Part shown: piece after piece, positions 6,351-21,641 of the stretch
Position numbering within the stretch: the first letter of the stretch is position 1
How the letters are laid out: each line of letters opens with the position of its first letter
Source of the DNA: Clostridiales bacterium
Lineage (GTDB): Bacteria > Bacillota > Clostridia > Lachnospirales > Lachnospiraceae
Length of the DNA: 64,000 bases
Reading direction: 5' to 3'
Assembly (NCBI GenBank): GCA_012839295.1
Contig: DUNO01000019.1
Coordinates: 52,682-116,681 of the forward strand
Translations under genes and position numbers: made by a program
Notes under the pieces: model-generated
Seen by the model: only the letters and a program-made list of their open reading frames with translations
Told to the model about the DNA's origin: nothing
Database searches by the model: none

Positions 6351-7889
6351 ATGAAGAAAAAAATTATTAGTATCTTACTGATGGCATCTATGGGACTGAT
6401 GTTAATGACTGGATGTTCAAACAATACGAGCAAGACAGAGGCTGATAATGCAGGTAAAACAGAAACTGGGAATTCGGGTGAAATGAAAGCGACGACAGCA
6501 CCGGCAGAGGAAGACATACCAAATATTGTTGTGGGCTTCTCTTACTTGGAAGTACCTACAGATTTAGCGAAAGTAGAGGCGGCAATTAATGAAATTACAA
6601 AAGAAAAGATCGGTTGTACCGTGACACTGAACGCTTACACTTACGGAACGGTTTCCCAACAAACACAGTTGGCTTTATCAACTCCAACGGAACAATTGGA
6701 TGCTTTAATGACAAGACTTTATGGAGTTGGTATTGGTGGCTTTGTATCAAAAGGCCAATTAAATCCACTGGATGACCTTTTGGAGCAGTATGGACAAGGT
6801 ATCGTAGATGCAGTTGGCTCTGATGTCTTGGATTCTAACAGGGTTAATGGAACGCTATATAGCATCACGCCGACTGGGGAAGGGGCTTCGCAATATTGTT
6901 TAATGGTTCGTAAAGACATTTTGGATGCAGTTGGATATGGTGATGTTACACAGGTTAATGATTATTCTGAACTTACTGATGTTTTTGATGCAATTAAAAA
7001 AACATACCCTGATTTGTATACAGTGGCTTCAGGTGCGGTGCAATCGCCATATACAATCAATTTACCTTTGAATATAGATCGCCTAGGTGATAAATTGGGT
7101 GTATTAGAAGATATCAATGAACCGACGGTTAGTAATTACTATAGATCTGACGCGTACAAGCAGATCTGCAAACTGGGCCGTGAATGGAATGAAGCAGGCT
7201 ATGTATATCCAGACATTCTTACAGATACCAGTAATTCAGGTGTTGCTCTAATGAAGCAAGGGCTCATGGCATCTTATTTTACGGTATATAAACCGGGAGC
7301 TGAATCAGAAGCTAAGGTTAGCACTGGTCATGAGGTTACAGCTATTAAGATTGGAGATGCACAAGCTATCGCGGGTCTTTCATGGCAGTGGACGATCCCT
7401 ACGAACTCTGTATATCCTGATAAAGCAATGCAATTCCTTAACCTGCTCTATACAGATGCCGACTTAGTTAATTTGATAAGCTTTGGTATTGAAGGAGACC
7501 ATTATAAGCTGGATGAAAATGGACAGGTAGTTTCCAGTGATAATACAGCGGGTTATGCTGATCAGAAACAATGGGAAACTGGAAATTATTTTCTGGCTCA
7601 CACTTTTGCAACACAGCCGATTGATTTGCATGATCAGATGAAAGCATGGAATGCTTCTGCAAAGAAGTCGATAGCTTGTGGCTTTTCATTTGATTCTACT
7701 GAAGTGTCGGCAGAATATACTGCAATTCAGTCGGTTATATCAGAATATGACACAGCGCTTCAATGGGGATTTGTTAAGGACATAGATTCTAAAATTGAGG
7801 AATTTAATAAAGCTCTACATGATGCGGGTTTACAGAAATATATGGATGCTAAGCAACAAGCCCTGAATGAATGGCTGGAAGCAAAATAG
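6351..7889 (+). CDS. Sugar ABC transporter substrate-binding lipoprotein
   Basis: RBS GGAGG; lipobox LMTGC; NTPTNSVYPDKAMQFLNLLY-type segment (WTIPTNSVYPDKAMQFLNLLY) and C-terminal GLQKYMDAKQQALNEWL typical of LplA/DUF3502-type binding proteins. Confidence 0.9.
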   Translation: MKKKIISILLMASMGLMLMTGCSNNTSKTEADNAGKTETGNSGEMKATTAPAEEDIPNIVVGFSYLEVPTDLAKVEAAINEITKEKIGCTVTLNAYTYGTVSQQTQLALSTPTEQLDALMTRLYGVGIGGFVSKGQLNPLDDLLEQYGQGIVDAVGSDVLDSNRVNGTLYSITPTGEGASQYCLMVRKDILDAVGYGDVTQVNDYSELTDVFDAIKKTYPDLYTVASGAVQSPYTINLPLNIDRLGDKLGVLEDINEPTVSNYYRSDAYKQICKLGREWNEAGYVYPDILTDTSNSGVALMKQGLMASYFTVYKPGAESEAKVSTGHEVTAIKIGDAQAIAGLSWQWTIPTNSVYPDKAMQFLNLLYTDADLVNLISFGIEGDHYKLDENGQVVSSDNTAGYADQKQWETGNYFLAHTFATQPIDLHDQMKAWNASAKKSIACGFSFDSTEVSAEYTAIQSVISEYDTALQWGFVKDIDSKIEEFNKALHDAGLQKYMDAKQQALNEWLEAK

Positions 7890-9077: not shown

Positions 9078-9178
9078 TATTTAGATATATAAATGGGGTG
9101 ATTAAGTAATAGATAAGAAACGGATATATTGATATGATAATATCAAACTTAAGAACATCAGTAAGTAGGAGGGAAAGT

Positions 9179-10105
9179 ATGTTAAACAGGATTAGGGTCA
9201 ATAAAAAGGGGATTTATAAGTACAGATGGTTGTATGTTATGATGATACCCAGTTTGATTTATATGATCATTAATAATTATGTTCCAATGGCAGGCTTGGT
9301 TATGGCATTCAAAAAGATTAATTTCTCAGTTGGGATATGGAAAAGTCCATGGGCAGGATTTGATAATTTTAGATATTTGTTTGCAACATCTGATGCATGG
9401 ATCATTACAAGAAATACGATCAGTTATAATCTGGCCTTTATTGTGCTGGGTAATACATTAGCCGTTTTAACGGCAATGGCACTGGCGGAAGTAAAGAGTA
9501 AAAAAGGGAGAGCGTTCTTTCAGGGATCTATTTTAATACCATATATAATCTCTTACGTTGTTGTTAGTTATCTAGTATATGCATTTTTAAGTACTAATGG
9601 TTTTTTTAATAAAACATTGCTTCCGCTGTTGGGCTTAGAGCCTACCAATTGGTATTTAGAAACCATATATTGGCCGTTTATACTGGTGATTGTATTTCTT
9701 TGGAAAGGTATTGGATACAGTAGTGTTATCTATCTTTCCTCCATTCTTGGAATTGATGGAAGCTTGTATGAAGCGGCAGCGCTTGATGGTGCAAATGCCT
9801 TCCAAAGAGCGAAATTGATAACAATTCCGTTGTTAAAGCCAACCATTATCACTTTGGTTATGCTTCAGATAGGAAGAATTTTTTATTCAGACTTTGGCTT
9901 ATTCTATCAGGTTCCCCAAAACTCAGGACAACTCCTCAAAGCCACTAATGTTATTGATACATATGTTTATCGTGGTTTATTGCAACTGGGAGATGTGAGT
10001 ATGTCGGCAGCTGCAGGATTTTATCAGGCAATTGTAGGTTTTGTGATTGTATTGGGAGCCAACCTTTTAGTTAAAAAATTTAGCCCAGATGATGCGCTAT
10101 TCTAG
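9179..10105 (+). CDS. Sugar ABC transporter permease (LplB-like)
   Basis: Start chosen at ATG 9179 after AGGAGGG. EAA loop SLYEAAALDGA; FYSDFGLFY; NVIDTYVYR. Confidence 0.92.
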   Translation: MLNRIRVNKKGIYKYRWLYVMMIPSLIYMIINNYVPMAGLVMAFKKINFSVGIWKSPWAGFDNFRYLFATSDAWIITRNTISYNLAFIVLGNTLAVLTAMALAEVKSKKGRAFFQGSILIPYIISYVVVSYLVYAFLSTNGFFNKTLLPLLGLEPTNWYLETIYWPFILVIVFLWKGIGYSSVIYLSSILGIDGSLYEAAALDGANAFQRAKLITIPLLKPTIITLVMLQIGRIFYSDFGLFYQVPQNSGQLLKATNVIDTYVYRGLLQLGDVSMSAAAGFYQAIVGFVIVLGANLLVKKFSPDDALF

Positions 10106-10116
10106 GAGAAGAGAAG

Positions 10117-10995
10117 ATGAAAGAAAAATTAAACTTATATCAAATACTCAGAACAATACTCTTGGCTTTATTATCGGCCTTTGCTATCTTGCCATTTGCT
10201 TTATTATTTATTGCCTCTTTAACAAAGGAATCTTTCATTATGCAAAACGGATATAGTTATTTTCCGAAGGAATGGAGTTTTTCGGCTTATGAATACTTAA
10301 TCGCAAATGGGGCGCAGATTTTTAGGGCTTATGGGATTTCCATTATAATTACGGTCGCAGGAACTTGTTTGGGACTTGCTCTAACTTTATTATTTGCATA
10401 TCCGTTATCTAAGCCGGACATGCCTGGAAGACGCTTTTTTAACTTTATGGTATTTTTCACGATTCTGTTTAGCGGAGGCCTAGTCCCCAGCTATACCATG
10501 TGGACTACTGTATTCCATATGAAGAATAGTATATTGGCATTGCTGATACCTGGATTGCTGATGAGAGGATTTTATGTAATACTTGCAAAATCCTATTTTC
10601 AGGCTTCAATACCTGGGGAGATTTATGAGTCAGCGAGAATTGATGGAGCAAGTGAGGTCACCGTATTTTCCAGGATTGCAATTCCGCTGGCAAAACCAAT
10701 TATTGCTACGCTGGTGCTGTTTATAGGATTGGATTATTGGAATGACTGGAATAACGGCTTGATTTATTTGACTAATGCTAAGCTATATAGCATCCAGAAT
10801 GTCCTGAACCAGATGATACAGACGATTACTTTCTTATCCCAGAATGCAGGGCAGGTAAGTGTCACTGGGAATATCCCCAGCAATGCTGTCCGGATGGCAA
10901 TTGCTGTAGTCGGAACTTTACCTGTGCTGATTGCATATCCTTTTCTTCAGAAATGGTTTGTAAAAGGCATCGTAATGGGCGGTGTTAAAGGGTGA
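10117..10995 (+). CDS. Sugar ABC transporter permease (LplC-like)
   Basis: FSGGLVPSY; EAA loop EIYESARIDGASE; DYWNDW; ends GGVKG. Confidence 0.92.
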   Translation: MKEKLNLYQILRTILLALLSAFAILPFALLFIASLTKESFIMQNGYSYFPKEWSFSAYEYLIANGAQIFRAYGISIIITVAGTCLGLALTLLFAYPLSKPDMPGRRFFNFMVFFTILFSGGLVPSYTMWTTVFHMKNSILALLIPGLLMRGFYVILAKSYFQASIPGEIYESARIDGASEVTVFSRIAIPLAKPIIATLVLFIGLDYWNDWNNGLIYLTNAKLYSIQNVLNQMIQTITFLSQNAGQVSVTGNIPSNAVRMAIAVVGTLPVLIAYPFLQKWFVKGIVMGGVKG

Positions 10996-11056
10996 TTGGC
11001 TAATTAAGAAGCAGGAAACCTGATGCTAGACAATTATAATAGGAGGAAATTTTATC

Positions 11057-12739
11057 ATGATAGATTTAAAGGGTAACCCGTTTTTTTTGGATGCAGAGCA
11101 GGAAAAATGGGTGAAGGATACGTTGGAGACATTATCCACGGATGAAAAGATAGGTCAGTTGTTTTGCGAAACCCTATGGAACTGCACTCAAGAGGAGGCA
11201 GATGTTGTTTTCAGTACGATAAAACCGGGGGGCGTTATGTTTCGTCCGAATCCGGCAAGAGAAATTCGTAAGTTTACCAAGCAATTGCAGGAAAGATCAA
11301 CAGTGCCTCTTTTGATCGCAGCGAACTTCGAAAGGGGTGGAAACGGGGGAATGACGGATGGAACCTATTACGGTTCCCAGATGCAGGTTGCAGCTGCAAA
11401 TGATGATCTGTGTGGAGAGAGGCTCGGTGTAATTGCGGGCCGTGAAGCACAGGCATTGGGCTTTAACTGGTCATTTGCCCCTATAGTAGACATTGATTAC
11501 AATTACTTGAGTACAGTAACGAATACCAGAACCTTTGGTTCAGACCCCGAAAAGATTATCAGATTATCAAAAGGATACATAAGAGGTGCGCAGGGGAGCA
11601 ACATAGCCGCAACGATTAAGCATTTCCCGGGGGATGGAATGGATATTCGGGATCAGCATAAAATTGCTACGATAAATACGAAGGCGGTTGAGGATTGGGA
11701 CGCAACCTATGGAAAGGTATACCGTGAGTTAATTGAAGCTGGTGCAGATTCTGTCATGATAGGCCATATCAAGTTGCCTGCGTACAGTCATTTGCTGGAG
11801 CCTGAAACCGCCGATAAGGATATCCTTCCTGCCTCCCTGAACCCTGTGTTAATTAATAAATTACTGAGGGAAGAGTTAGGTTTTAATGGGCTGACAGTAT
11901 CTGATGATACCCATATGGCAGGCTTTATGAATTCGTTGAAACGAAAAGATGCTGTGCCGCAATGCATTGCGGCGGGCTGTGACATGTTTTTGTTTACAAT
12001 CAATCATAAAGAAGATGTGGAATACATGAGAGCCGGTGTTCGTGAGGGGGTAATTACCCAGGAACGTTTGGATGAAGCAGTAACTAGAATTTTGGCGTTA
12101 AAGGCAAAATTACGTCTTTATGAGATGGATAATTCAGAACGGGCAGAATTCGGCGAAGAGATTGTGGGATGTGAAGAACATAAGCTTTGGGCACAAGAAT
12201 GTGCGGATAAGGCAGTAACTCTAGTGAAAGATGTTGACCATTTACTGCCGATCACTCCTGAAAAGTATAAACGGATTTTGATTTATGGTTTTATGGGAGA
12301 AAAGGCCGGACGCTATGATAATCATCCTCAATATGAAAAATTTAAAATGGATCTCACCCATGAAGGGTTTGAAATAACAGAAATAAACCTGGATGAAATG
12401 CCGGGGCTGGGCAAGATGGGTGTCGGCATCGAAGATTTGGGGAAAAAATATGATATAATGATCTATTTTGTAGGAGCCCATTCTGGATACCGGATTAACT
12501 GGGAGTCCATTGTCTGTGGGGAGATTGCAAGTTATACGAAAGAGATTCCTACGATGGCGATATCCTTTGCAAGTCCATATATGCTGATTGATTTGGCTAT
12601 GGTAAGTACTTATATCAATGCATACAGTGAATCAGATTTTACAAGAAAAGCAGTCATAGAAAAAATGATGGGAAAAAGTGAATTTAAGGGGGTGAATCCG
12701 GTAGATCCATTCTGTGGGATGTGGGATTTGCCGTTATAA
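11057..12739 (+). CDS. Glycoside hydrolase family 3 (beta-glucosidase / beta-N-acetylhexosaminidase, His acid-base type)
   Basis: EKIGQLF; FAPIVDI; NTRTFG; KHFPGDG..IRDQH; nucleophile segment VSDDTHM; AGCDMFL. Confidence 0.92.
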   Translation: MIDLKGNPFFLDAEQEKWVKDTLETLSTDEKIGQLFCETLWNCTQEEADVVFSTIKPGGVMFRPNPAREIRKFTKQLQERSTVPLLIAANFERGGNGGMTDGTYYGSQMQVAAANDDLCGERLGVIAGREAQALGFNWSFAPIVDIDYNYLSTVTNTRTFGSDPEKIIRLSKGYIRGAQGSNIAATIKHFPGDGMDIRDQHKIATINTKAVEDWDATYGKVYRELIEAGADSVMIGHIKLPAYSHLLEPETADKDILPASLNPVLINKLLREELGFNGLTVSDDTHMAGFMNSLKRKDAVPQCIAAGCDMFLFTINHKEDVEYMRAGVREGVITQERLDEAVTRILALKAKLRLYEMDNSERAEFGEEIVGCEEHKLWAQECADKAVTLVKDVDHLLPITPEKYKRILIYGFMGEKAGRYDNHPQYEKFKMDLTHEGFEITEINLDEMPGLGKMGVGIEDLGKKYDIMIYFVGAHSGYRINWESIVCGEIASYTKEIPTMAISFASPYMLIDLAMVSTYINAYSESDFTRKAVIEKMMGKSEFKGVNPVDPFCGMWDLPL

Positions 12740-12742
12740 AAG

Positions 12743-13456
12743 ATGAAAATAACAGATAATATTTACCAAATAAGCGGACTTGCATTTGGAACAAATTCAA
12801 ATGCATATGTCATAGATGCAGGAGAGGAACTTATTTTGATAGATGCAGGATTTTCTGACTATCAGTGGGAGGTTATGCAAAAATCGATAAAGTTCTGGGG
12901 CTTAGAGAAAAAGCCAATTACACATACCTTTATAACTCATTGCCATTTTGATCATGCCGGTAATACCTGGCTGGCAAAGGAGGCCGGTTCAAGGATTTAT
13001 GCTGGGGATTCCGATGCACAGGGGATAGAGACAGGTGATATAAGAACGATAGGCCATATGTTTGGAAGGGAATTTAAGCCCTGTAAAGTGGACCACATCT
13101 TAAAGGACGGAGAAGTATTTCAAATAGGAAACAAGGAAATCAGGGCATTATATATGCCTGGACACAGTGTAGGTTCATATATGTTCCAAGTAGACGACAA
13201 TGGACGTAATTGCTTGTTCTTGGGGGATTTCGTTGCTTTGAACCCGGATGGAGCAGAGGATGATGTCATTGTATTGTTATCCTGGACCGGCGGGCCTGAC
13301 TATGACAGAGAATCCTATGTTAATTCATTGAAAAGGGCAGTAGGCTTTGAACCAGTTATCATGCTGCCGGGACATTGGGCATGCTTTTATGGTGATAGCC
13401 AGACAATATTTAAAAGGGCTTATCAGCTTGGTCTGGAATTAAAAGATGAAGGATGA
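12743..13456 (+). CDS. Metallo-beta-lactamase-fold hydrolase
   Basis: LIDAG; THCHFDHAG (HxHxDH); PGHSVG; FLGD; PGHW. Confidence 0.88.
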   Translation: MKITDNIYQISGLAFGTNSNAYVIDAGEELILIDAGFSDYQWEVMQKSIKFWGLEKKPITHTFITHCHFDHAGNTWLAKEAGSRIYAGDSDAQGIETGDIRTIGHMFGREFKPCKVDHILKDGEVFQIGNKEIRALYMPGHSVGSYMFQVDDNGRNCLFLGDFVALNPDGAEDDVIVLLSWTGGPDYDRESYVNSLKRAVGFEPVIMLPGHWACFYGDSQTIFKRAYQLGLELKDEG

Positions 13457-13462
13457 TTGTAA

Positions 13463-14926
13463 ATGGAAGCAAGGAAATCAGTAGTATTAGTGTTTGATGT
13501 GGGAAGCTCCGGCATGAAAGGTTTTTTGTACAACAAGAATGGGATATGTATTGGAAAGAGTCAATACTTATACTCAATGAAGATTGATGGGCAGGCTGCT
13601 ACACAAAAGGCTGAGGATTTTGAAAATGGCGTACAGAATAATAGCAGAAACCTTCTAAAATATGCAAAAGAGGCAGGCTGTTCTATAGAAGCTATTGTTT
13701 TTACTTCTCAGAGATCTTCTCTGGTCTGCCTGAGTGAAAAAGGCCATGTCCTCACTGATTTCATAATGTGGTATGACAAACGTTCACAGGATATTTGCAA
13801 TACCAGGAAAGAAACCCTTAAAGATAGTCATTATCAGATATGTGGAATAGATCCCTCTCCGATATTATTGGCACCTAAGATTACATGGGTGAAAGAAAAT
13901 ATGAAAGATGTTGCCAAGAAAACTGTTAAATATGTCAGTATTCAGGATTTCTTGATTTACCGTGCAACAGGAAAATTTGTAACGGATCCCACATTGGCCT
14001 GTAGGACAGGACTTATGGAGATCCACACAATGTATTGGTCAGAAGAAATGCTGGATTGTTATGGCATACATAAAAAAGAATTATGTGACATAATCCCTAC
14101 TGGCAGCATAGCAGGGAAAGTGACCAGGGAGTTTTCCGGAATGACAGGATTACCGGAAGGAATTCCTGTAATAACGGCGGGGGGAGACCAGCAGTGTTCC
14201 GTTCATGGACAGGGGATTGATGAATCTGCAATCGGGGTAACTTTAGGAAGCGGCGGATATGCAGTGGGTATTTCCAGTACTCTGGCTTTGGCCGCAGAGG
14301 ATAAAATAGATGTATGTGCTTCATCCGTTAGCGGTTGGTGGAATCTTGAAAAAAGTATTCCATCAGTCGGAACATCCTATGACTGGTGTCGCAGAAATTT
14401 TTACGGAGAAGAATGCATACAGGAGGAGTTCAACAAGAAATTGGAATTGTCGGAACCGGGTGCCGGAGGTGTAATTGCTTATACGGATTTTACGAAAAGG
14501 GATAAATCAGGGGGTAGCAAAGCACTAATGAATATAGGGCTTTCAACCAGCAGAGAGGATATGGCCAGGGCTTTTGTAGAGAGCGTTGTTGACGATATGG
14601 CAGAAAGCTGTCTCCTTCTCAAAAAGAGGCTTGTAAAAATAAACAAAGTTCTGGTCACAGGAGGGATGTCAAAGTCCGATCTGATCAACCAGATGCTGGC
14701 AGATATGCTGGACATTCCTGTAATAAAGAATCGAATAGATGAAGCAACAGCTGACGGAGCATGGCTTTTGGCAGCAAAAGAATTAGGTATGTATTCGGTT
14801 GGGATAGAAAATGACCGGCGCAAGGCCTTACAGGAAAAAGAATATATTCCTAATAAGTTCTGCGTTGAAAGATATGCAGTGAACAGACTGGAGCGGAGAA
14901 AAATTTTTGAAAAGGAGAGTATGTGA
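13463..14926 (+). CDS. FGGY-family carbohydrate kinase (xylulokinase / LyxK-like; substrate unknown)
   Basis: [10 protein letters not shown]; WYDKRS; GGDQQC; [17 protein letters not shown]. Confidence 0.88.
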
Positions 14927-14927
14927 A

Positions 14928-16031
14928 ATGAGTAAAATAAGTGAGACAACAAGGGAAAATTGGATTATGGGCACATTTCCGGAATGGGGGACATGGCTTA
15001 ACGAAGAAATTGAGGAAGAAGAGGTAACGCCCGGAACGATAGCTATGTGGTGGCTTGGTTGCACGGGGATTTGGTTAAAAACTCCCGGAGCAGCGAATAT
15101 CAGCATTGACCTGTGGTGTGGAAACGGAAAGCGTTCTCATGGTAATGGGAAAATGCAGGTCGGCCATCAGATGGCGAATATGTGTGGGGCAAGAGCCATG
15201 CAGCCAAATTTGAGGGCAGTTCCCTTTGTCATCGACCCTTTTGCAGTAAAGCATGTTGATGCAGTACTGGCTACACACTACCACCAGGATCATATGAGCT
15301 CAGAATTTGCAGCTCATGTAATCCAAAGTGGCATTACAACAACAGATGAAAAGAGGAAGAAAATTCCAGTTCCCTTCATTGGACCAAAAAAGTCGGTTGA
15401 AACGTGGATAAAATGGGGAGTTCCCGAGGAGAGATGTATTACCGTTAAGCCGGGTGATTCAATTAAGATAAAAGATATTGAAATCATTGCACTGGATTCC
15501 TTTGACAGAACCTGCCTTGTAACTACCGATTCTCAAGGAGCCGACCGGGAGGAGCTGACAGGGATATGTCCTATGGATATGGATGATAAGGCGGTGAATT
15601 ACCTGATAAAAACTCCGGGCGGAAACATCTATCATAGCGGTGATTCCCATTACTCCATTTACTTTGCAAAGCATGGAAAGGATTATGAGGTTGATGTTGC
15701 ATTTGCTTCCTACGGAGAAAACCCGGTTGGCATGGCAGACAAAATGACATCCTGTGATGTACTCCGGATGGCAGAGGCACTCCGCACAAACGTTGTAATT
15801 CCAATTCATTATGACGTATGGACTAACTTCATGGCAGACGTCAATGAAATCAAAGTACTTTATGATATGAAAAAAGATCGTCTTGATTATCAGTTCCATC
15901 CGTTTTTCTGGGAAGTAGGAGGTAAGTACATTTATCCTACCGACAAAGAGAAGAAAGCATATCATCACAGGAGAGGGTTTGAAGACTGCTTCGAGGCACC
16001 ACAGAACATACCATTCCGTTCATTATTGTAA
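14928..16031 (+). CDS. ulaG: L-ascorbate 6-phosphate lactonase
   Basis: N-terminus [35 protein letters not shown]; [13 protein letters not shown]; THYHQDHM; YHSGDSHYS; IPIHYDVW, all characteristic of UlaG. Confidence 0.93.
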
Positions 16032-16059
16032 AATGCACCATAGTTGAGGATAGTGGAAA

Positions 16060-16905
16060 ATGAAGAAATATACATTGGGATTATATGAAAAGGCAATGCC
16101 GAACGAATTATCCTGGAAAGACAAGCTGGCAGCGGCTAAGCAGGCAGGATTTGACTTTATAGAAATAAGCATTGATGAGACAGATGAGAAGCTGTCAAGG
16201 CTGGATATGTCACAAGCAGAGCGCATGCTACTGCTCAATACCTGCCTGGTAATGGAAATGCCGATCAGATCCATGTGTTTAAGCGGTCATAGAAGATTTC
16301 CCCTTGGAAGCACGGATCCGTCAATTGAAGCAAAGGGAATGGAAATTATGGAGAAGGCCATACAATTGGCTGATGATCTTGGAATAAGGGTGATCCAGTT
16401 AGCGGGGTATGATGTTTATTATGAAGAGGGAAATAAAAAGACCAGAGAAAGGTTTGCGAGGAATCTGGCTGAAGCGGTTAATATGGCTTCAGCCAGAGCT
16501 ATAGTAATGGGATTTGAAACAATGGAAACGGAGTTCATGAATACTGTCGGGAAGGCAATGGAATATGTAAAGGGAGACAACTCCCCCTATTTAATGGTCT
16601 ATCCGGATATTGGAAACATAACAAATGCGGCAAAAACGTATAAAACAGATGTGATGGAAGATTTAAAGACGGGAAAAGGACACATTATAGCCATGCATTT
16701 AAAAGAAACTATTCCAGGGGTATTTCGGGAAGTACCCTTTGGAGCTGGTCATGTTGATTTCCAGTCGGCAATTAAGACAGCATGGGAGTTGGGAGTAAGA
16801 AAGTACGTAACGGAGTTCTGGTATACGGGCAGTCCAGAGTGGAAAGAAGAGCTGAAGGCCGCTAATAGAATTATGAGTGCAATGCTTGATGCTCAATCTG
16901 CCTGA
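16060..16905 (+). CDS. ulaE: L-xylulose-5-phosphate 3-epimerase (UlaE/SgbU family)
   Basis: LGLYEKAMP; FIEISIDETDEKLSRLD; SMCLSGHRRFPLGS; IQLAGYDVYYE; YPDIGN; MHLKET. Confidence 0.92.
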   Translation: MKKYTLGLYEKAMPNELSWKDKLAAAKQAGFDFIEISIDETDEKLSRLDMSQAERMLLLNTCLVMEMPIRSMCLSGHRRFPLGSTDPSIEAKGMEIMEKAIQLADDLGIRVIQLAGYDVYYEEGNKKTRERFARNLAEAVNMASARAIVMGFETMETEFMNTVGKAMEYVKGDNSPYLMVYPDIGNITNAAKTYKTDVMEDLKTGKGHIIAMHLKETIPGVFREVPFGAGHVDFQSAIKTAWELGVRKYVTEFWYTGSPEWKEELKAANRIMSAMLDAQSA

Positions 16906-16935
16906 GATTCAAACAGAAAGGGTTAGTGATTAATT

Positions 16936-18078
16936 ATGAGTAGATGGCTTTTAGGAACCTGGAATGGTCAATTAATATACCATGATGAAACGGATGAGCT
17001 TAAGAAGCAGGTGACTCAACTGACAAAGGGGCAGGATATTGCCTATATGGAGTTGGATTATGAAAAAATGCTCTTGTTTGTATTGTTGAATAATAAAGAT
17101 AGCGTGACAGGTAATGGAGGTAGCATTTTAACATATCAGATAAATGGAGACGGACAGGGAATTACTTTCCTCAACGAAATGGGTTCCTTTGGCGCTTATC
17201 CGATTGAAATTAAATTGGAGGATAGCTATGCTGTTGTTGTTAATCATGGAAGCACGAAGGATTTTGGACTGAAGACAGTACGTGATAATAAGGGCAAAAT
17301 ACAGGTCGAAAAAATTTATGAAGAATCAAGTATCGTACTTTTTGGAAGAAAAAAGGATGGAACCTTAGGTGAGGCTCTGGATGTTATCAAATTTCAGGGA
17401 AGTGGGGAAATCCCATTCTTTCAGGAAGCCCCTTCACCGCATTCCCTATACTATTTACATAGTAAGAAAGAGTTTTATGTTCCTGAAAGAGGTACGGACA
17501 GAGTAAGTGTATTTCAAATTAATGAGCAGGATAGACATTTAAAAAAAATAGGGATCATGAAGAGTAAAAAGGGATATGGTCCCAGAAACATTACTTTTCA
17601 TCCTTCTGGAAAATGGGCTTATCTTATGCACGAAATTGAATCATATGTCTTTGTATATGAAAGGGCGGAGAAGCCCGACGGAAGGGTTCGTTTTAAAAAG
17701 ATACAGGAAATAAAGACAGTGACAGAAGAAGTGGCAGGAGCCTTTACTATGCCCCAGCATTCCTTTGCGGCACTGCATCCAGTGGATCTGGCTGCTTCTG
17801 ATAAAGGTCAGTATTTGTATGTGCTGACAAGAAGCAGTAACACCTTGACAACTTTTCATATAAACCAGAAAACAGGAAGAATAAAAATTGCAGACTGCAG
17901 TTCAATCGGAGGGATAAACCCTAGACAGATATCAGTCGTTGGTGAAGAAATTTATATTATTACCCTGGATGATGGGAGCATGGTTAAATGGGAGCATAGG
18001 GAAGGGAATATGTGCCCGGAAAGAAAAGAGGTTATCATAGAGGGGATACCTAAATTAGCTGTTGGAAGAAAAATGTAA
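16936..18078 (+). CDS. Lactonase, 7-bladed beta-propeller (6-phosphogluconolactonase Pgl/YbhE-like)
   Basis: PSPHS; GYGPRNITFHPSGKWAYLMHE; GINPRQ; no signal peptide visible. Confidence 0.78.
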   Translation: MSRWLLGTWNGQLIYHDETDELKKQVTQLTKGQDIAYMELDYEKMLLFVLLNNKDSVTGNGGSILTYQINGDGQGITFLNEMGSFGAYPIEIKLEDSYAVVVNHGSTKDFGLKTVRDNKGKIQVEKIYEESSIVLFGRKKDGTLGEALDVIKFQGSGEIPFFQEAPSPHSLYYLHSKKEFYVPERGTDRVSVFQINEQDRHLKKIGIMKSKKGYGPRNITFHPSGKWAYLMHEIESYVFVYERAEKPDGRVRFKKIQEIKTVTEEVAGAFTMPQHSFAALHPVDLAASDKGQYLYVLTRSSNTLTTFHINQKTGRIKIADCSSIGGINPRQISVVGEEIYIITLDDGSMVKWEHREGNMCPERKEVIIEGIPKLAVGRKM

Positions 18079-18121
18079 TGAAGAACAACAATGACGTGCA
18101 AAGAGGAAAGCAGGAGGGGTT

Positions 18122-19180
18122 ATGTTTACTAAAAAAGTAATTAAAGAATTGGAAAACTGCTATTCAATAGCACCATTAACATATCGGGGAAAAAACTGTA
18201 TCTTAGTTGCAGCTGAGAAGCATGCTCCGTGTTACTTGTTCACAGATGATGGAGAATTGATTGATACGGTCTGGGAGGAACCAGGCGGTGTCATGACGAT
18301 GGTACAGCTACCCGGTAAGGACGGGGAGTTTCTGGCGACACATCAGTTCTATTCACCAAATGATTCTAAAGAGGCTAAGATTGTATATGTCAGGCATGAT
18401 GATAAAAAAGGATGGGTAGTTACAGAGCTGGTAAAGCTTCCATTTATCCATAGGTTTGATATCATCACAAGAAATGGCGTGAATTATCTGCTGGCATGTG
18501 CCTTGAAATCAGGATATGAATATAAAGAAGATTGGAGATTTCCAGGGCAAACCTTTACTGCAATTTTACCGGAGGATCTCTCCCAATTTCATGAAGGGAA
18601 TAACCTCCGGTTAACATTGATTAAGGATAAGATGCTTAGGAACCATGGGTATACCAGATATTTTGACAATGGAATACAGACAGGCATCATCTCGTGTGAT
18701 AACGGTGTTTATCAGTTTATACCCCCTGTTTGTAAAACAAGTGATTGGCAGGTGAAAGAGCTAATTAATGAACCCACCAGTGATGCGCTGTTGGGAGATT
18801 TCGACGGGGATGGAAATGACGAATTATTTGTTATAACTCCATTTCATGGGAATTTTGTAAAGCTTTATAAAAGGGTGGGCGGCAGCTTTAAAGAGATTTA
18901 CCAAATCCCTCTGGAACTGGAAATGCTGCATGCAATATATCAGGGAACTATTCATGGACGGCATACGATTATTTTTGGCCACAGAAAAGGAAACTGTGAT
19001 TTACTGCAGTTCTATTATGACCATAAAGAAGGTGGCTATAAATATGAAGTAATCGACCATGGCCGTGGCCCAGCTAATGTATATATGTACCATGCCGGTG
19101 GACAGGATAAGATAGTCGCTACAAATAGAGAAACAAATGAAATAGCCATCTATACCTACTGCAAGGAAGATGGAAAATAG
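18122..19180 (+). CDS. Uncharacterised protein, probable beta-propeller with one FG-GAP-like loop
   Basis: RBS AGGAGGGG; beta-strand-rich sequence; GDFDGDGNDE motif; His-rich (PFIHRF, RNHG, PFHG, MLHA, GHR). Confidence 0.7.
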   Translation: MFTKKVIKELENCYSIAPLTYRGKNCILVAAEKHAPCYLFTDDGELIDTVWEEPGGVMTMVQLPGKDGEFLATHQFYSPNDSKEAKIVYVRHDDKKGWVVTELVKLPFIHRFDIITRNGVNYLLACALKSGYEYKEDWRFPGQTFTAILPEDLSQFHEGNNLRLTLIKDKMLRNHGYTRYFDNGIQTGIISCDNGVYQFIPPVCKTSDWQVKELINEPTSDALLGDFDGDGNDELFVITPFHGNFVKLYKRVGGSFKEIYQIPLELEMLHAIYQGTIHGRHTIIFGHRKGNCDLLQFYYDHKEGGYKYEVIDHGRGPANVYMYHAGGQDKIVATNRETNEIAIYTYCKEDGK

Positions 19181-19205
19181 CCTGGAGAATGAAAGGGGGT
19201 ATATT

Positions 19206-19874
19206 ATGAATGGTGATGAAACCCGTAAAAGAATCTATCAAAAGATAAAAAAATTAGAAGCATACCGTGAAATACAAAACCTCATGGGAAGAACAGTTAT
19301 TGCATATAATTTTAGGCAGAAAGCAGAGTTGGCAGGGTTTTTTAGCAAAGTACAGGCCGATATCTCTATAGAGGTTGCTGATGAAGGTGTTTTCCAAGGC
19401 AAGGAAGCTGTTGAGGCGTATATCAAAGAGTACATTCCCCAAGAAGGTATCCCCGGTGAAATGATGGACATTCATTTGGCATCCCCCATCATTGAGGTAG
19501 CTGATGATGTAAAAACAGCAAAAGCGCAGTGGGTATGTCCTGGAATAGGAGCCCTTCCAAGAGAAAATAACGAACCGTTAGCTATCTGGAATTGGGGGAT
19601 TATTGCTGCTGACTTCACATATGAAGAAGGTGAGTGGAAAATCTGGCATCTACATTGGTTCCGGTTAATGAAGTGTGATTATGATAAGGGCTGGGTAAAA
19701 GATACCAGCATGGAAAACAGATTGAATAAGCCATATCATCCGTTAGCCAAGCCAACGACCTATCATAACCCGTATACACCGTATAGTATTAGGGAGTGTA
19801 TCCCCGCGATTCCAAGGCCTTATGTAACCTGGGACAATAGTGACTGGATGCTTAATAAGAACAGGGTGGATTAA
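19206..19874 (+). CDS. SnoaL-like / NTF2-family protein (paralog 1)
   Basis: LEAYREIQNLMGR; HLASPIIEVADDVKTAKAQW; ADFTYEEGEWKIWHLHW. Confidence 0.82.
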   Translation: MNGDETRKRIYQKIKKLEAYREIQNLMGRTVIAYNFRQKAELAGFFSKVQADISIEVADEGVFQGKEAVEAYIKEYIPQEGIPGEMMDIHLASPIIEVADDVKTAKAQWVCPGIGALPRENNEPLAIWNWGIIAADFTYEEGEWKIWHLHWFRLMKCDYDKGWVKDTSMENRLNKPYHPLAKPTTYHNPYTPYSIRECIPAIPRPYVTWDNSDWMLNKNRVD

Positions 19875-19875
19875 T

Positions 19876-20556
19876 ATGGAGTATGAATTAATGATGGAAG
19901 ATGAGTTAGCGCTGGTGGATTTTACAGAGGGTGAGCTAATTGAGTTAGAGCAGCAGATTGATAAACTTCTAGCAGCTTGGGAGATTCAGAATTTAAGAGG
20001 AACATTGTACCGTTTTCATGATGATCAACACATTGGTGACCAAAGAAGAGAGCTTTACGCTGACCAGCATCCTGGACTTGATTATGAGACTCTTCTTAAA
20101 TCGAGAATGGTAGAATTGGTAGAAAGCTTAGAAGGTAATACGTTAATACACCCGGTCATGACCCCGGTAATTGAAATAGATAAAGAGTGCAAGAAAGCTA
20201 GAGCAGTATTTTCATCATTTGGATATGAAGGCCTTTCGATTCACCGAGAGGCTCCAATGGCAATCTGGAGCATCGGATATATCCCTGGAGTTCATGTTCG
20301 GCAGGATGGTGAATGGCGTGTCTTGAGCGGGGTATGGCAGAGAACTGTAAAGACCCAGATGGAGAAAGGCTGGGTAAGGGATATGCAGAAATCAAACTGT
20401 AAACCTCCTTTGACAGATGAGCAGGACAGGAACTATCTTGGAAAATATGCCTACCATAAAGACACAGCCAGAAAATATGTACCAGTTCCACCGGATAAAA
20501 ATACCTGGAATAAATATCCGGATGAAATGGATGAAAAATGGAAGGAGAAGATATAA
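19876..20556 (+). CDS. Divergent SnoaL-like / NTF2-family protein (paralog 2)
   Basis: WEIQNLRG; HPVMTPVIEID..KARAVF; AIWSIG; QDGEWRV; KGWVRD. These align with paralog 1; start lies 1 nt after its stop. Confidence 0.7.
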   Translation: MEYELMMEDELALVDFTEGELIELEQQIDKLLAAWEIQNLRGTLYRFHDDQHIGDQRRELYADQHPGLDYETLLKSRMVELVESLEGNTLIHPVMTPVIEIDKECKKARAVFSSFGYEGLSIHREAPMAIWSIGYIPGVHVRQDGEWRVLSGVWQRTVKTQMEKGWVRDMQKSNCKPPLTDEQDRNYLGKYAYHKDTARKYVPVPPDKNTWNKYPDEMDEKWKEKI

Positions 20557-20587
20557 AAGTAGGAAATTATATTAGGAGGATACACAT

Positions 20588-21379
20588 ATGGCACTTATAC
20601 AGGTTGATTACTCATCACGCGAATTACGTAGAAATGTGACTTTTAGGGCAGTGATACCAAATGACTACAATATATTCGGTGAAAAGTGTGATAGAACCCG
20701 GCAAAAATTTAGAACGGTATATCTTCTTCATGGATATAAAGGTAATTGTACTGACTGGCTCAATGGATTTCATATCCAGGAATTGGCTGACACTTATAAT
20801 TTTGTTGTTATCATGCCCTCTGGAGAAAACTCGTTTTATATTGATGAACCAGACAAGGGGGAATATTATGGAAGGTTTATAGGTAAAGAGTTAGTAGAAT
20901 ATACTAGGGATTTATTCCCTTTGTCATCAAAAAGAGAAGATACATTTATAGGTGGCTTTTCTATGGGTGGTTATGGAGCAGCAATTAATGGCCTTAAGTA
21001 CTCTGATAACTTTTCAAAAATTATGAGCTTTTCGGGAGGCTTTTTAGTGCTTGATGCAGCTGATGAAAAAGAATATACCAATGTTATGGTGTTAACAACT
21101 GAATATCAAAAGAGAATTTTTGGAGATGTGGACTTACTTAGAAATAGTGATAAGGATCCACGTTTTCTTGTAGAGCAGTTGCAAGCCGAAGGGAGCCAGA
21201 TCCCTGAAATATTCATGACATGTGGAACAGAAGACGGGTTGGTTGGTGTCAATCAAAAACTGAATAGATACCTTGTCAAAAGGGGAATATCGCATAAATA
21301 TATTGAGGATAAGGGAATACATGACAGAGAATTTACAAGACGCTATCTTGAAGAAGCAATTCAATGGATGTTAGAGTAA
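20588..21379 (+). CDS. Alpha/beta-hydrolase esterase (acetyl/tributyrin esterase type)
   Basis: VYLLHG; VIMPSGENSFY; GGFSMGGYGA (GxSxG); CGTEDGL; GIHD. Confidence 0.9.
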   Translation: MALIQVDYSSRELRRNVTFRAVIPNDYNIFGEKCDRTRQKFRTVYLLHGYKGNCTDWLNGFHIQELADTYNFVVIMPSGENSFYIDEPDKGEYYGRFIGKELVEYTRDLFPLSSKREDTFIGGFSMGGYGAAINGLKYSDNFSKIMSFSGGFLVLDAADEKEYTNVMVLTTEYQKRIFGDVDLLRNSDKDPRFLVEQLQAEGSQIPEIFMTCGTEDGLVGVNQKLNRYLVKRGISHKYIEDKGIHDREFTRRYLEEAIQWMLE

Positions 21380-21605: not shown

Positions 21606-21641
21606 CCCGGATTTTATCTTGCTAAAATCCGGGATTTTTTT
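21606..21641 (+). terminator. Intrinsic terminator-like hairpin downstream of the catabolic operon
   Basis: CCCGGATTTTA / TAAAATCCGGG perfect 11-bp stem followed by A and a T7 tract. Confidence 0.65.

Follow-up and report, generated by a model that had tools for sequence, protein, structure and literature searches.

Two adjacent genes within a sugar-acid operon of a Clostridiales bacterium (Lachnospiraceae; GenBank assembly GCA_012839295.1, contig DUNO01000019.1, positions 52,682 to 116,681 of the forward strand) raise the question of what a pair of NTF2-like paralogs contributes to the breakdown of sugar derivatives. The whole analyzed stretch of 64,000 nucleotides is referred to as the window, and coordinates without a contig or locus name are positions in it. 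An earlier note on this DNA had described the two genes, here named paralog A and paralog B, as translationally coupled SnoaL/NTF2-like paralogs, the second one strongly divergent, and had proposed a heteromeric lyase, dehydratase or decarboxylase. According to the analysis presented here, A and B form a catalytic-type NTF2-fold pair, which is apparently heteromeric and probably acts in sugar-lactone catabolism.

Paralog A is located on the forward strand at 19206-19874 (ATG at 19206, TAA at 19872-19874) and codes for a protein of 222 aa of the NTF2/SnoaL_4, LdpA-like type with a long proline-rich C-terminal arm. Paralog B follows on the same strand at 19876-20556 (ATG at 19876, TAA at 20554-20556) and codes for an NTF2-like protein of 226 aa, which scores below the Pfam threshold and belongs to a narrow family. 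As the earlier note had stated, the genes are 1 nt apart, with the single base 19875 separating the stop codon of A from the start codon of B. A Shine-Dalgarno-like GGGGG was found at 19195-19199, 6 nt 5′ of the start of A, and a second such motif, GGGTGG, at 19864-19869 within the 3′ end of A, 6 nt ahead of the start of B. At the junction (19864-19878, forward strand), GGGTGG is followed by the stop codon of A (TAA), a single base and the start codon of B (ATG), a layout that fits coupled translation. The same 1-nt gap was identified in the nearest relative, a Vallitaleaceae genome (locus L005).

In a public gene call (P0192, 221 aa), B begins at the sixth codon (ATG at 19891), which results in a gap of 16 nt. 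The N-termini of homologs and the GGGTGG run favor the start at 19876 over that at 19891, and A and B would still be tightly packed with the alternative start. A longer frame of A from 19170 overlaps the upstream gene, and the homolog N-termini do not support this start.

The relationship between the two proteins was borne out by BLASTP (28% identity over 162 residues, E = 8e-17) and by a profile-profile comparison using hhalign (probability 99.3%, E = 1.4e-20, 197 columns). The sequence blocks named in the earlier note were found at residues 22-26 of A and 36-40 of B (EIQNL), 126-131 and 129-134 (AIW..G), 142-144 and 145-147 (GEW) and 161-166 and 164-169 (KGWVxD), respectively, and proline-rich tails are present in both proteins. 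The H..xPxIE block also occurs in both, but its histidines are not homologous: H90 of A is aligned with P93 of B, and H92 of B with I89 of A. Residue conservation was counted over 120 A-family and 110 B-family members, and the position of H90 is a Gln in 109 of the former. The N-terminus of B is longer than that of A, and its central region is indeed shorter, with approximately 11 gap columns between helix 1 and the first strand. The description of paralog 2 as strongly divergent is true only relative to A, since the two families are equally well conserved in themselves (mean alignment-column identity of 66% for B and 65% for A).

An NTF2-like fold is predicted for both proteins, for A by the Pfam family SnoaL_4 and for B by an AlphaFold2 model in combination with Foldseek. 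Paralog A matched SnoaL_4 (PF13577) with 52.8 bits (E = 5e-14), which passes the gathering score of 24 bits. The match of B (16.9 bits, E = 0.0066) is below this score, and a precomputed Pfam match is missing in nearly all members of the B family, which amounts to about one 50%-identity cluster among 1.84 billion representative proteins. The AlphaFold2 models, built as monomers on family alignments, had a mean predicted local distance difference test (pLDDT) score of 80 for A and 75 for B, and the order of helices and strands was as expected for the NTF2 alpha+beta cone fold. The C-terminal arms of both proteins were of low confidence in the monomer models, and loop 43-56 of B, which holds an invariant HDDQH, had a pLDDT below 50. 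The first Foldseek match was LdpA (8ABT/8ABV) for both proteins (5e-11 for A, to 8abt, and 1e-6 for B), followed by BaiE, LinA and scytalone-dehydratase-like proteins; all top matches have the NTF2 fold. By sequence, LdpA is the sole solved relative of A (E about 8e-7). The entries 8ABT, 8ABU and 8ABV are all LdpA, the diarylpropane (erythro-DGPD) γ-formaldehyde lyase of Novosphingobium/Sphingobium. This cofactor-free lyase is an obligate homotrimer held together by an extended, swapped C-terminal arm, and a His97-Asp40 dyad, Glu143 and Tyr35/Tyr147 are essential for its function (PMC9942872).

Of 79 loci retrieved from species-representative genomes, 37 non-redundant ones, besides that of the window, contain A orthologs at 48-72% identity; 40 A-B pairs were counted in 38 loci. 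In every A locus (40 out of 40 pairs) a B ortholog lies adjacent to A, 3′ of it and on the same strand, with a gap of -4 to 64 nt (median 12.5 nt). Neither A nor B was found without its partner in the 38 loci. Members of the A family are on average 58% identical to each other and those of the B family 59%, with a correlation of r = 0.91 between the pairwise distances of the two families. Since B is as constrained as A, it is not a decaying copy.

The carriers of the pair span Clostridia, Erysipelotrichia, Actinobacteria and Chloroflexota, and thus at least three phyla. Within the Lachnospiraceae, the pair was identified in Blautia, Diplocloster, Merdimonas, Laedolimicola and Lachnoclostridium; further carriers are the Vallitaleaceae genome mentioned above (the nearest, 72%), Ruminiclostridium sufflavum, Erysipelotrichaceae/Solobacterium, Amycolatopsis and a Limnocylindrales genome. 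The pair is rare, being present in 1 of 300 sampled Clostridia genomes and in none of 9 genomes of the same family. In Blautia hominis KB1 (L012) two pairs are found in one operon (9992-11364 and 18553-20002), in which a short-chain dehydrogenase/reductase (SDR) gene is followed by A and B, an Opp-type ATP-binding cassette (ABC) importer, an FGGY kinase and the second pair A2-B2, the counterparts being 51-55% identical.

The arms of A and B comprise approximately 60 residues each, are rich in proline and are highly conserved. In the wider superfamily, natural fusions of two LdpA-like NTF2 domains (P0262, P0266 and P0272; 418-458 aa, about 2 x 220) as well as of three (P0316 and P0378; 652-672 aa, about 3 x 220) were identified, besides tandem arrays of 3-5 NTF2 paralogs. 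With three domains in one polypeptide, P0316 and P0378 would resemble a single-chain version of the LdpA trimer. A heteromer of A and B is plausible because of the strict A-then-B adjacency, the equal co-evolution, the LdpA-like conserved arms and the fusions in the superfamily; the disorder of the HDDQH loop of B in the monomer model is also in favor of an oligomer. Alternatively, A and B could be separate homo-oligomeric enzymes whose steps are consecutive or alternative, as in the conversion of two stereoisomers, and which are co-inherited only because both steps are needed. This is in line with the equal conservation of the two families, each of which has its own set of invariant polar residues, and the two pairs of the B. 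hominis operon and the arrays of 3-5 paralogs could reflect multiple activities. It is nevertheless considered distinctly improbable, given that the two genes were never found apart, have a fixed order and very short gaps, and that multi-domain fusions occur in the superfamily. The pocket of A also speaks against an independent enzyme, as A is without a polar canonical pocket (T/A, N, I/L/M, A/V/I and L/I/V at the positions equivalent to the LdpA pocket).

The distribution of the active-site residues reverses the subunit roles of the earlier note, which had placed the histidine in paralog 1 and described paralog 2 as remodeled. Three independent alignments (A with LdpA, the B profile with LdpA and A with B) agree on the position of the canonical His. 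His97 of LdpA corresponds to H92 of B, which is a His in 100 of the 110 B members, and to I89 of A, where Met, Leu, Ile or Val is found in 118 of the 120 A members. Asp40 of LdpA corresponds to N35 of A (Asn in 118 of 120), and the invariant D49-D50 of B, within the HDDQHIG loop (residues 48-54), lies at or near the Asp40 site. The LdpA-type His97-Asp40 dyad is thus absent from A, and B has the His with a nearby Asp, the register of which is ambiguous. Glu143 is replaced by N/A/V129 in A and by S132 in B, Tyr35 by T/A30 in A and A/G44 in B, and Tyr147 by L/I/V133 in A and V/I136 in B. A comparison with the BaiE/scytalone dehydratase type gave a similar picture, with the His and a nearby Asp in B, no dyad in A and no conserved Tyr at the LdpA-equivalent oxyanion positions.

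Residues N25, D59, D88, E97, D101, W109, W128, W130, C157, D166 and H187 of A are invariant, and H150, R29, H148 and R153 are nearly so. The invariant residues are located outside the positions equivalent to the LdpA pocket, which are small or hydrophobic and variable in A. In B, S132, R109, E118, R124-E125, W154, R156 and K159 are conserved in addition to the invariant HDDQHIG loop. The last strand carries an Arg and a Lys in both A and B at the place of Met and Gln in LdpA, which would be consistent with an anionic substrate. Because the residue alignments put the canonical His in B and an Asn and a hydrophobic residue in A, B appears to be the subunit that retains the classical site, and A may be a non-canonical catalyst or a partner for assembly or specificity.

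The sugar-acid context proposed in the earlier note was confirmed, as the pair is part of a sugar-lactone operon of the ula type. The operon (9134-21379, forward strand) comprises 13 co-oriented genes, of which A and B are the genes 11 and 12; two DeoR regulators and the gene for a binding protein (6351-7889) lie upstream of it. It starts with two ABC permeases (9134-10995) and a glycosidase of glycoside hydrolase family 3 (GH3; 11057-12739), which together provide the entry route for a glycoside. These are followed by a hydrolase of 237 aa with the metallo-β-lactamase (MBL) fold (12743-13456), a putative lactone hydrolase, and by an FGGY sugar kinase (13463-14926), which is xylulokinase-like and below every equivalog cut-off. 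UlaG, the L-ascorbate-6-phosphate lactonase (14907-16031; NCBIfam 617 bits, cut-off 306), and UlaE, the L-ribulose-5-phosphate 3-epimerase (16060-16905; 372 bits, cut-off 200), come next, followed by a 7-bladed propeller lactonase (16936-18078) and an unassigned protein of 352 aa (18122-19180), which is located at the position where related ula operons have UlaD. Downstream of B, an esterase (PF00756; 20588-21379) is the last gene of the operon, which is closed by a strong hairpin with a T-run (21606-21633, forward strand) that resembles an intrinsic terminator. No specific function could be assigned to the 352-aa protein, the SDR, the MBL hydrolase or the binding protein by searches against PDB sequences.

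An autoinducer-2 (AI-2, lsr-like) locus was considered for the combination of SorC, FGGY and ribose-type ABC genes and was rejected, since UlaG and UlaE are bona fide. The kinase scores higher on the xylulokinase than on the LsrK model, both below the cut-off, and the binding protein is nearer to the ribose and YtfQ binders than to LsrB. The same genome contains a second, canonical ascorbate locus of the phosphotransferase system (PTS) type on contig C57 (72787-89787). It consists of UlaC, UlaA, UlaB, a DeoR regulator, UlaG, a paralog of the 352-aa protein, UlaE and UlaF; the identities to the window are 66% for UlaG, 37% for the 352-aa paralog and 58% for UlaE. In view of this locus, the operon of the window is a diverged parallel set, which appears to borrow UlaF.

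The gene context was counted over the 37 non-redundant loci. The most constant companion of the pair is the MBL hydrolase, which was found in 26 loci and directly upstream of A in 12, and an SDR gene is located directly upstream of A in 9. SDR and glycosidase genes are nearly exclusive (SDR only in 12 loci, glycosidase only in 15, both in 1), and an FGGY or PfkB kinase is present in 19 loci. The genes of the Ula trunk (UlaG, UlaD, UlaE and UlaF) share an operon with the pair in four unrelated architectures, and the entry routes are ABC with GH3, PTS with GH1, or ABC alone.

Five types of loci could be distinguished. Type I, that of the window, combines an ABC importer having a DUF3502 binding protein with GH3, the MBL hydrolase and FGGY, and optionally contains the 7-bladed lactonase and UlaG, the 352-aa protein and UlaE. 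Type II has a SorC regulator next to SDR-A-B with a ribose-type ABC importer, MBL and FGGY, the trunk being optional. Type III resembles type II and carries an Opp-type ABC importer and the lactonase; the type III locus of Blautia producta continues directly with MBL-FGGY-UlaG-352aa-UlaE-UlaF. Type IV, with ten loci, consists of AraC next to MBL-A-B-PTS(EIIBC)-GH1. Type V was found in Amycolatopsis with the order UlaD-UlaE-UlaF-ABC-PfkB-A-B-cyclase-family hydrolase. The co-occurrence of the pair with ulaG, suggested as a check in the earlier note, was observed in all 5 pair-bearing genomes tested (UlaG 76-79% identical to that of the window), and the 352-aa protein is likewise present in all 5. 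A and B are absent from canonical PTS-type ula operons, for example those of Lachnoclostridium An138 and of contig C57, which places the pair outside the trunk and argues for a substrate that the PTS does not supply and that enters unphosphorylated or as a glycoside.

Some pair loci contain additional large genes. In a Lachnospiraceae metagenome-assembled genome (L004:8156-9964), the gene immediately 5′ of A and B codes for a fusion of the 7-bladed lactonase with a HAD-family hydrolase domain (602 aa). Extra genes also flank the pair at L024:16896-18887 and L038:14275-16356, the latter, located after GH1, coding for an α/β hydrolase of the prolyl-oligopeptidase family (S9). Together with the PF00756 esterase of the window, this S9 hydrolase hints at the existence of acylated substrate forms.

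No UlaD homolog could be identified in the genome of the window (completeness 97.9%), and the pair might be regarded as its replacement. The corresponding scheme would be a cofactor-free decarboxylation of unphosphorylated 3-keto-L-gulonate to L-xylulose, with the FGGY kinase acting as L-xylulokinase and UlaG and UlaD being bypassed. NTF2-fold decarboxylases are known, a gallate decarboxylase of this fold is among the Foldseek matches, the kinase scores best on xylulokinase models, and the ten PTS and GH1 loci would need only UlaE and UlaF downstream. A decarboxylase role of the pair is nevertheless very unlikely. The pair co-occurs with UlaD in 3 loci, among them the Amycolatopsis operon, which holds both, and one Erysipelotrichaceae locus, in which UlaD is nearby. 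Canonical PTS ula operons work without the pair, and those that lack UlaD also carry no A or B. Furthermore, UlaG is retained in the operon of the window.

As a UlaD substitute the pair was therefore rejected, because it is the 352-aa protein, not A/B, that is anti-correlated with UlaD and occupies its operon position. UlaD alone was found in 3 loci, the 352-aa protein alone in 8, and both together in none. In the PTS ula operon of Lachnoclostridium sp. An138 (ulaG-C-A-B-R-[352aa]-E-F) the 352-aa protein is located in the UlaD slot; besides the window, it was found at L087:9669-10715 and L088:3803-4870. It gave only weak FG-GAP-like repeat matches and belongs to no Pfam or NCBIfam family. From its position and distribution, it is a candidate for a non-orthologous 3-keto-L-gulonate-6-phosphate decarboxylase.

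The function that fits these observations best, and which is held tentatively at somewhat less than an even chance, is that of a hetero-oligomeric, cofactor-independent NTF2-fold enzyme catalyzing a proton transfer on a ring-opened ascorbate-type compound before its phosphorylation. The enzyme would probably be built like the arm-swapped LdpA trimer. B would supply the general base His92, paired with the invariant Asp49/Asp50 loop, and A, having lost the classical site, would add a differently conserved surface of acidic and aromatic residues as well as its C-terminal arm, which would serve the assembly and perhaps a site shared by both subunits. The substrate may be an unphosphorylated, anionic C6 compound of the ascorbate type. 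The constant module of the loci would be a hydrolase or SDR, followed by A/B, a kinase and the trunk. Just before the A/B step, the MBL hydrolase (in Amycolatopsis the cyclase-family hydrolase) would open an unphosphorylated ascorbate-type lactone, which in the glycosidase loci would first be freed from a β-glycoside by GH3 or a phospho-GH1. In the SDR loci the same intermediate could be reached by oxidation or reduction of a related compound. A and B would then catalyze the ketonization of the labile 2,3-enediol, or a 2-keto/3-keto isomerization, to 3-keto-L-gulonate. The FGGY or PfkB kinase would phosphorylate C6 afterwards, and the product would enter the trunk through UlaG, followed by UlaD or its 352-aa substitute, UlaE and UlaF. 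The Amycolatopsis operon, which lacks redox enzymes as well as glycosidases, suggests the import of a compound with the oxidation level of ascorbate and 3-keto-L-gulonate.

Several observations weigh against this assignment. A separate UlaG paralog, only 66% identical to the one linked to the PTS, is retained in the operon of the window, which implies that a lactone intermediate is phosphorylated. An isomerase would also not explain why this operon contains up to three genes of the lactonase type, and no kinase is linked to the pair in the ten type IV loci (AraC next to MBL-A-B-PTS-GH1). The register of the Asp in B differs between alignments: D49 is matched with Asp40 without a gap via LdpA, but is shifted downstream by 3 residues when A and B are aligned directly. 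Conservation is equally high in A and B, and A carries conserved histidines of its own (His148 and His150), so that a non-canonical catalysis by A may occur. Finally, an abundant natural β-glucoside of ascorbate is not known to us. Dehydroascorbate, 2,3-diketogulonate, 2-keto-L-gulonate, L-gulono-/L-galactono-lactone, erythorbate, ascorbigen, cellobionolactone and coumarin glucosides were weighed as other candidate substrates. The first two would need a reductase, and three architectures are without one.

The same oligomer could instead catalyze a dehydration, hydration or β-elimination on a keto-sugar lactone or enone, for example by adding water to, or eliminating it from, a reductone-type intermediate delivered by the SDR or the glycosidase. 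Dehydratases and a dehydrochlorinase are the nearest characterized folds after LdpA, and the order SDR-A-B mimics the BaiA/BaiE logic. In addition, LdpA-like NTF2 genes were found beside C-glycoside deglycosidase (CGD) α/β and Gfo/Idh/MocA genes in three loci. In such deglycosidase systems, the enone sugar 2-hydroxy-3-keto-glucal is formed (PMC10628242, PMC8563793). A reaction of this kind is judged unlikely, since no net change in water is needed from ascorbate-level compounds to 3-keto-L-gulonate-6-phosphate, oxidoreductase and glycosidase genes are both missing from the Amycolatopsis operon, and the Tyr residues of the oxyanion hole of the dehydratases are absent from A and B.

One of these deglycosidase loci lies in the genome of the window on contig C48 (46331-60956) and holds a single LdpA-like NTF2 gene with 32% identity. 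The gene is located between the ABC permeases and the CGD β (PF19906) and CGD α (TIM barrel) genes; a PhzA/B-like NTF2 gene is found at C48:46331-46801. The locus as a whole comprises a DUF3502 binding protein, two permeases, the NTF2 gene, CGD β, CGD α, RpiR, a second TIM barrel and Gfo/Idh/MocA. Orthologs of its NTF2 gene were identified in CGD loci of Anaerobacterium chartisolvens and of another genome with two adjacent NTF2 genes after the deglycosidase (L089 and L091), and one further ortholog has an unrelated context. Other relatives form arrays beside LacI and ribose-type ABC genes or beside FGGY and 7-bladed lactonase genes. The LdpA-like NTF2 branch thus seems to be specialized in sugar derivatives of the keto, enone or enediol type. 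Literature searches yielded no relevant publication connecting SnoaL/NTF2 proteins with ula genes, sugar kinases, lactonases or the catabolism of C-glycosides.

The earlier note had also suggested that the pair acts on the aglycone. This holds only if the aglycone is itself a sugar-like lactone; a third of the loci are without any glycosidase. In a stricter form, the pair would act on the phenolic or lactone aglycone of a plant β-glucoside, such as a coumarin-type lactone opened by the MBL hydrolase, by a quinone-methide chemistry like that of LdpA, and the link to ula would be incidental. For this, the closest solved relative is a lignin-dimer lyase and ten loci hold nothing but AraC next to MBL-A-B-PTS(EIIBC)-GH1. 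The chance of it is very slight, as the binding and catalytic residues of LdpA are all replaced except the His in B, and in operons without a glycosidase the pair is combined with an ABC importer of the monosaccharide type, a sugar kinase and enzymes of the Ula pathway. The LdpA reaction itself, the deformylation of phenolic dimers, was rejected for A and B on the basis of the residues and the context.

If the proton-transfer function proposed above is true, it defines an unannotated enzyme family, with B being invisible to Pfam, and, in bacteria of the gut, the rumen and soil, a branch of vitamin C catabolism that is fed by glycosides and does not depend on the PTS. A hetero-oligomeric member acting on sugar acids would join the small set of catalytic NTF2-fold enzymes, and tandem NTF2 arrays beside sugar transporters, lactonases, kinases and C-glycoside lyases would receive a testable explanation. 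A broader version, which we consider rather unlikely as a whole, regards A/B as the founding member of a hetero-oligomeric NTF2 class for reductone-type (enediol or enone) sugars; here the pair would be the missing catalyst for the use of free vitamin C and its β-glycosides by bacteria that lack or bypass the ascorbate PTS, turning ring-opened ascorbate into the substrate of the kinase, and the relatives beside C-glycoside deglycosidases would process the enone sugar. For annotation, B, the 'divergent' copy, should be regarded as the one with the classical site, and the gap left by UlaD should not be closed with the pair.

Compared to known systems, A and B are most similar to LdpA, which also consists of an NTF2 core with a long C-terminal arm (about 220-250 aa) and needs no cofactor. 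LdpA differs in being a homotrimer encoded by one gene, in its substrate, a neutral lignin-derived phenolic dimer, and in its context, which is lignin catabolism and not sugar-lactone catabolism. Its Tyr35, Glu143 and Tyr147 are missing in A and B, His97 is kept only in B, and Asp40 is an Asn in A. BaiE, scytalone dehydratase and LinA share the NTF2 fold with A and B (Foldseek 1e-8 to 1e-6) and carry the general-base His on the same strand as B. They are trimers that catalyze cofactor-free eliminations beside a carbonyl, and BaiE works after an SDR (BaiA), just as A and B follow an SDR in 9 loci. In contrast to A and B, these enzymes are about 150-170 aa in length, lack the long arm, form homo-oligomers and act on steroid, polyketide or chlorinated ring compounds; their oxyanion Tyr is not conserved in A/B. 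PhzA and PhzB of phenazine biosynthesis are, like A and B, adjacent paralogs of the NTF2/ketosteroid-isomerase fold in one operon, whereas they belong to another pathway, have about 160 aa and no arms, and the PF03284 (PhzA/PhzB) profile matched neither A nor B. By analogy only, the proposed principle of a cofactor-free acid-base shift between keto and enol forms is that of ketosteroid isomerase and of the phospho-AI-2 isomerase LsrG. The catalytic Tyr and Asp of ketosteroid isomerase are not conserved in A/B, and LsrG has a different fold, whereas sugar-operon isomerases of the LsrG type are, similar to A and B, encoded between transporter and kinase genes with a SorC or DeoR regulator.

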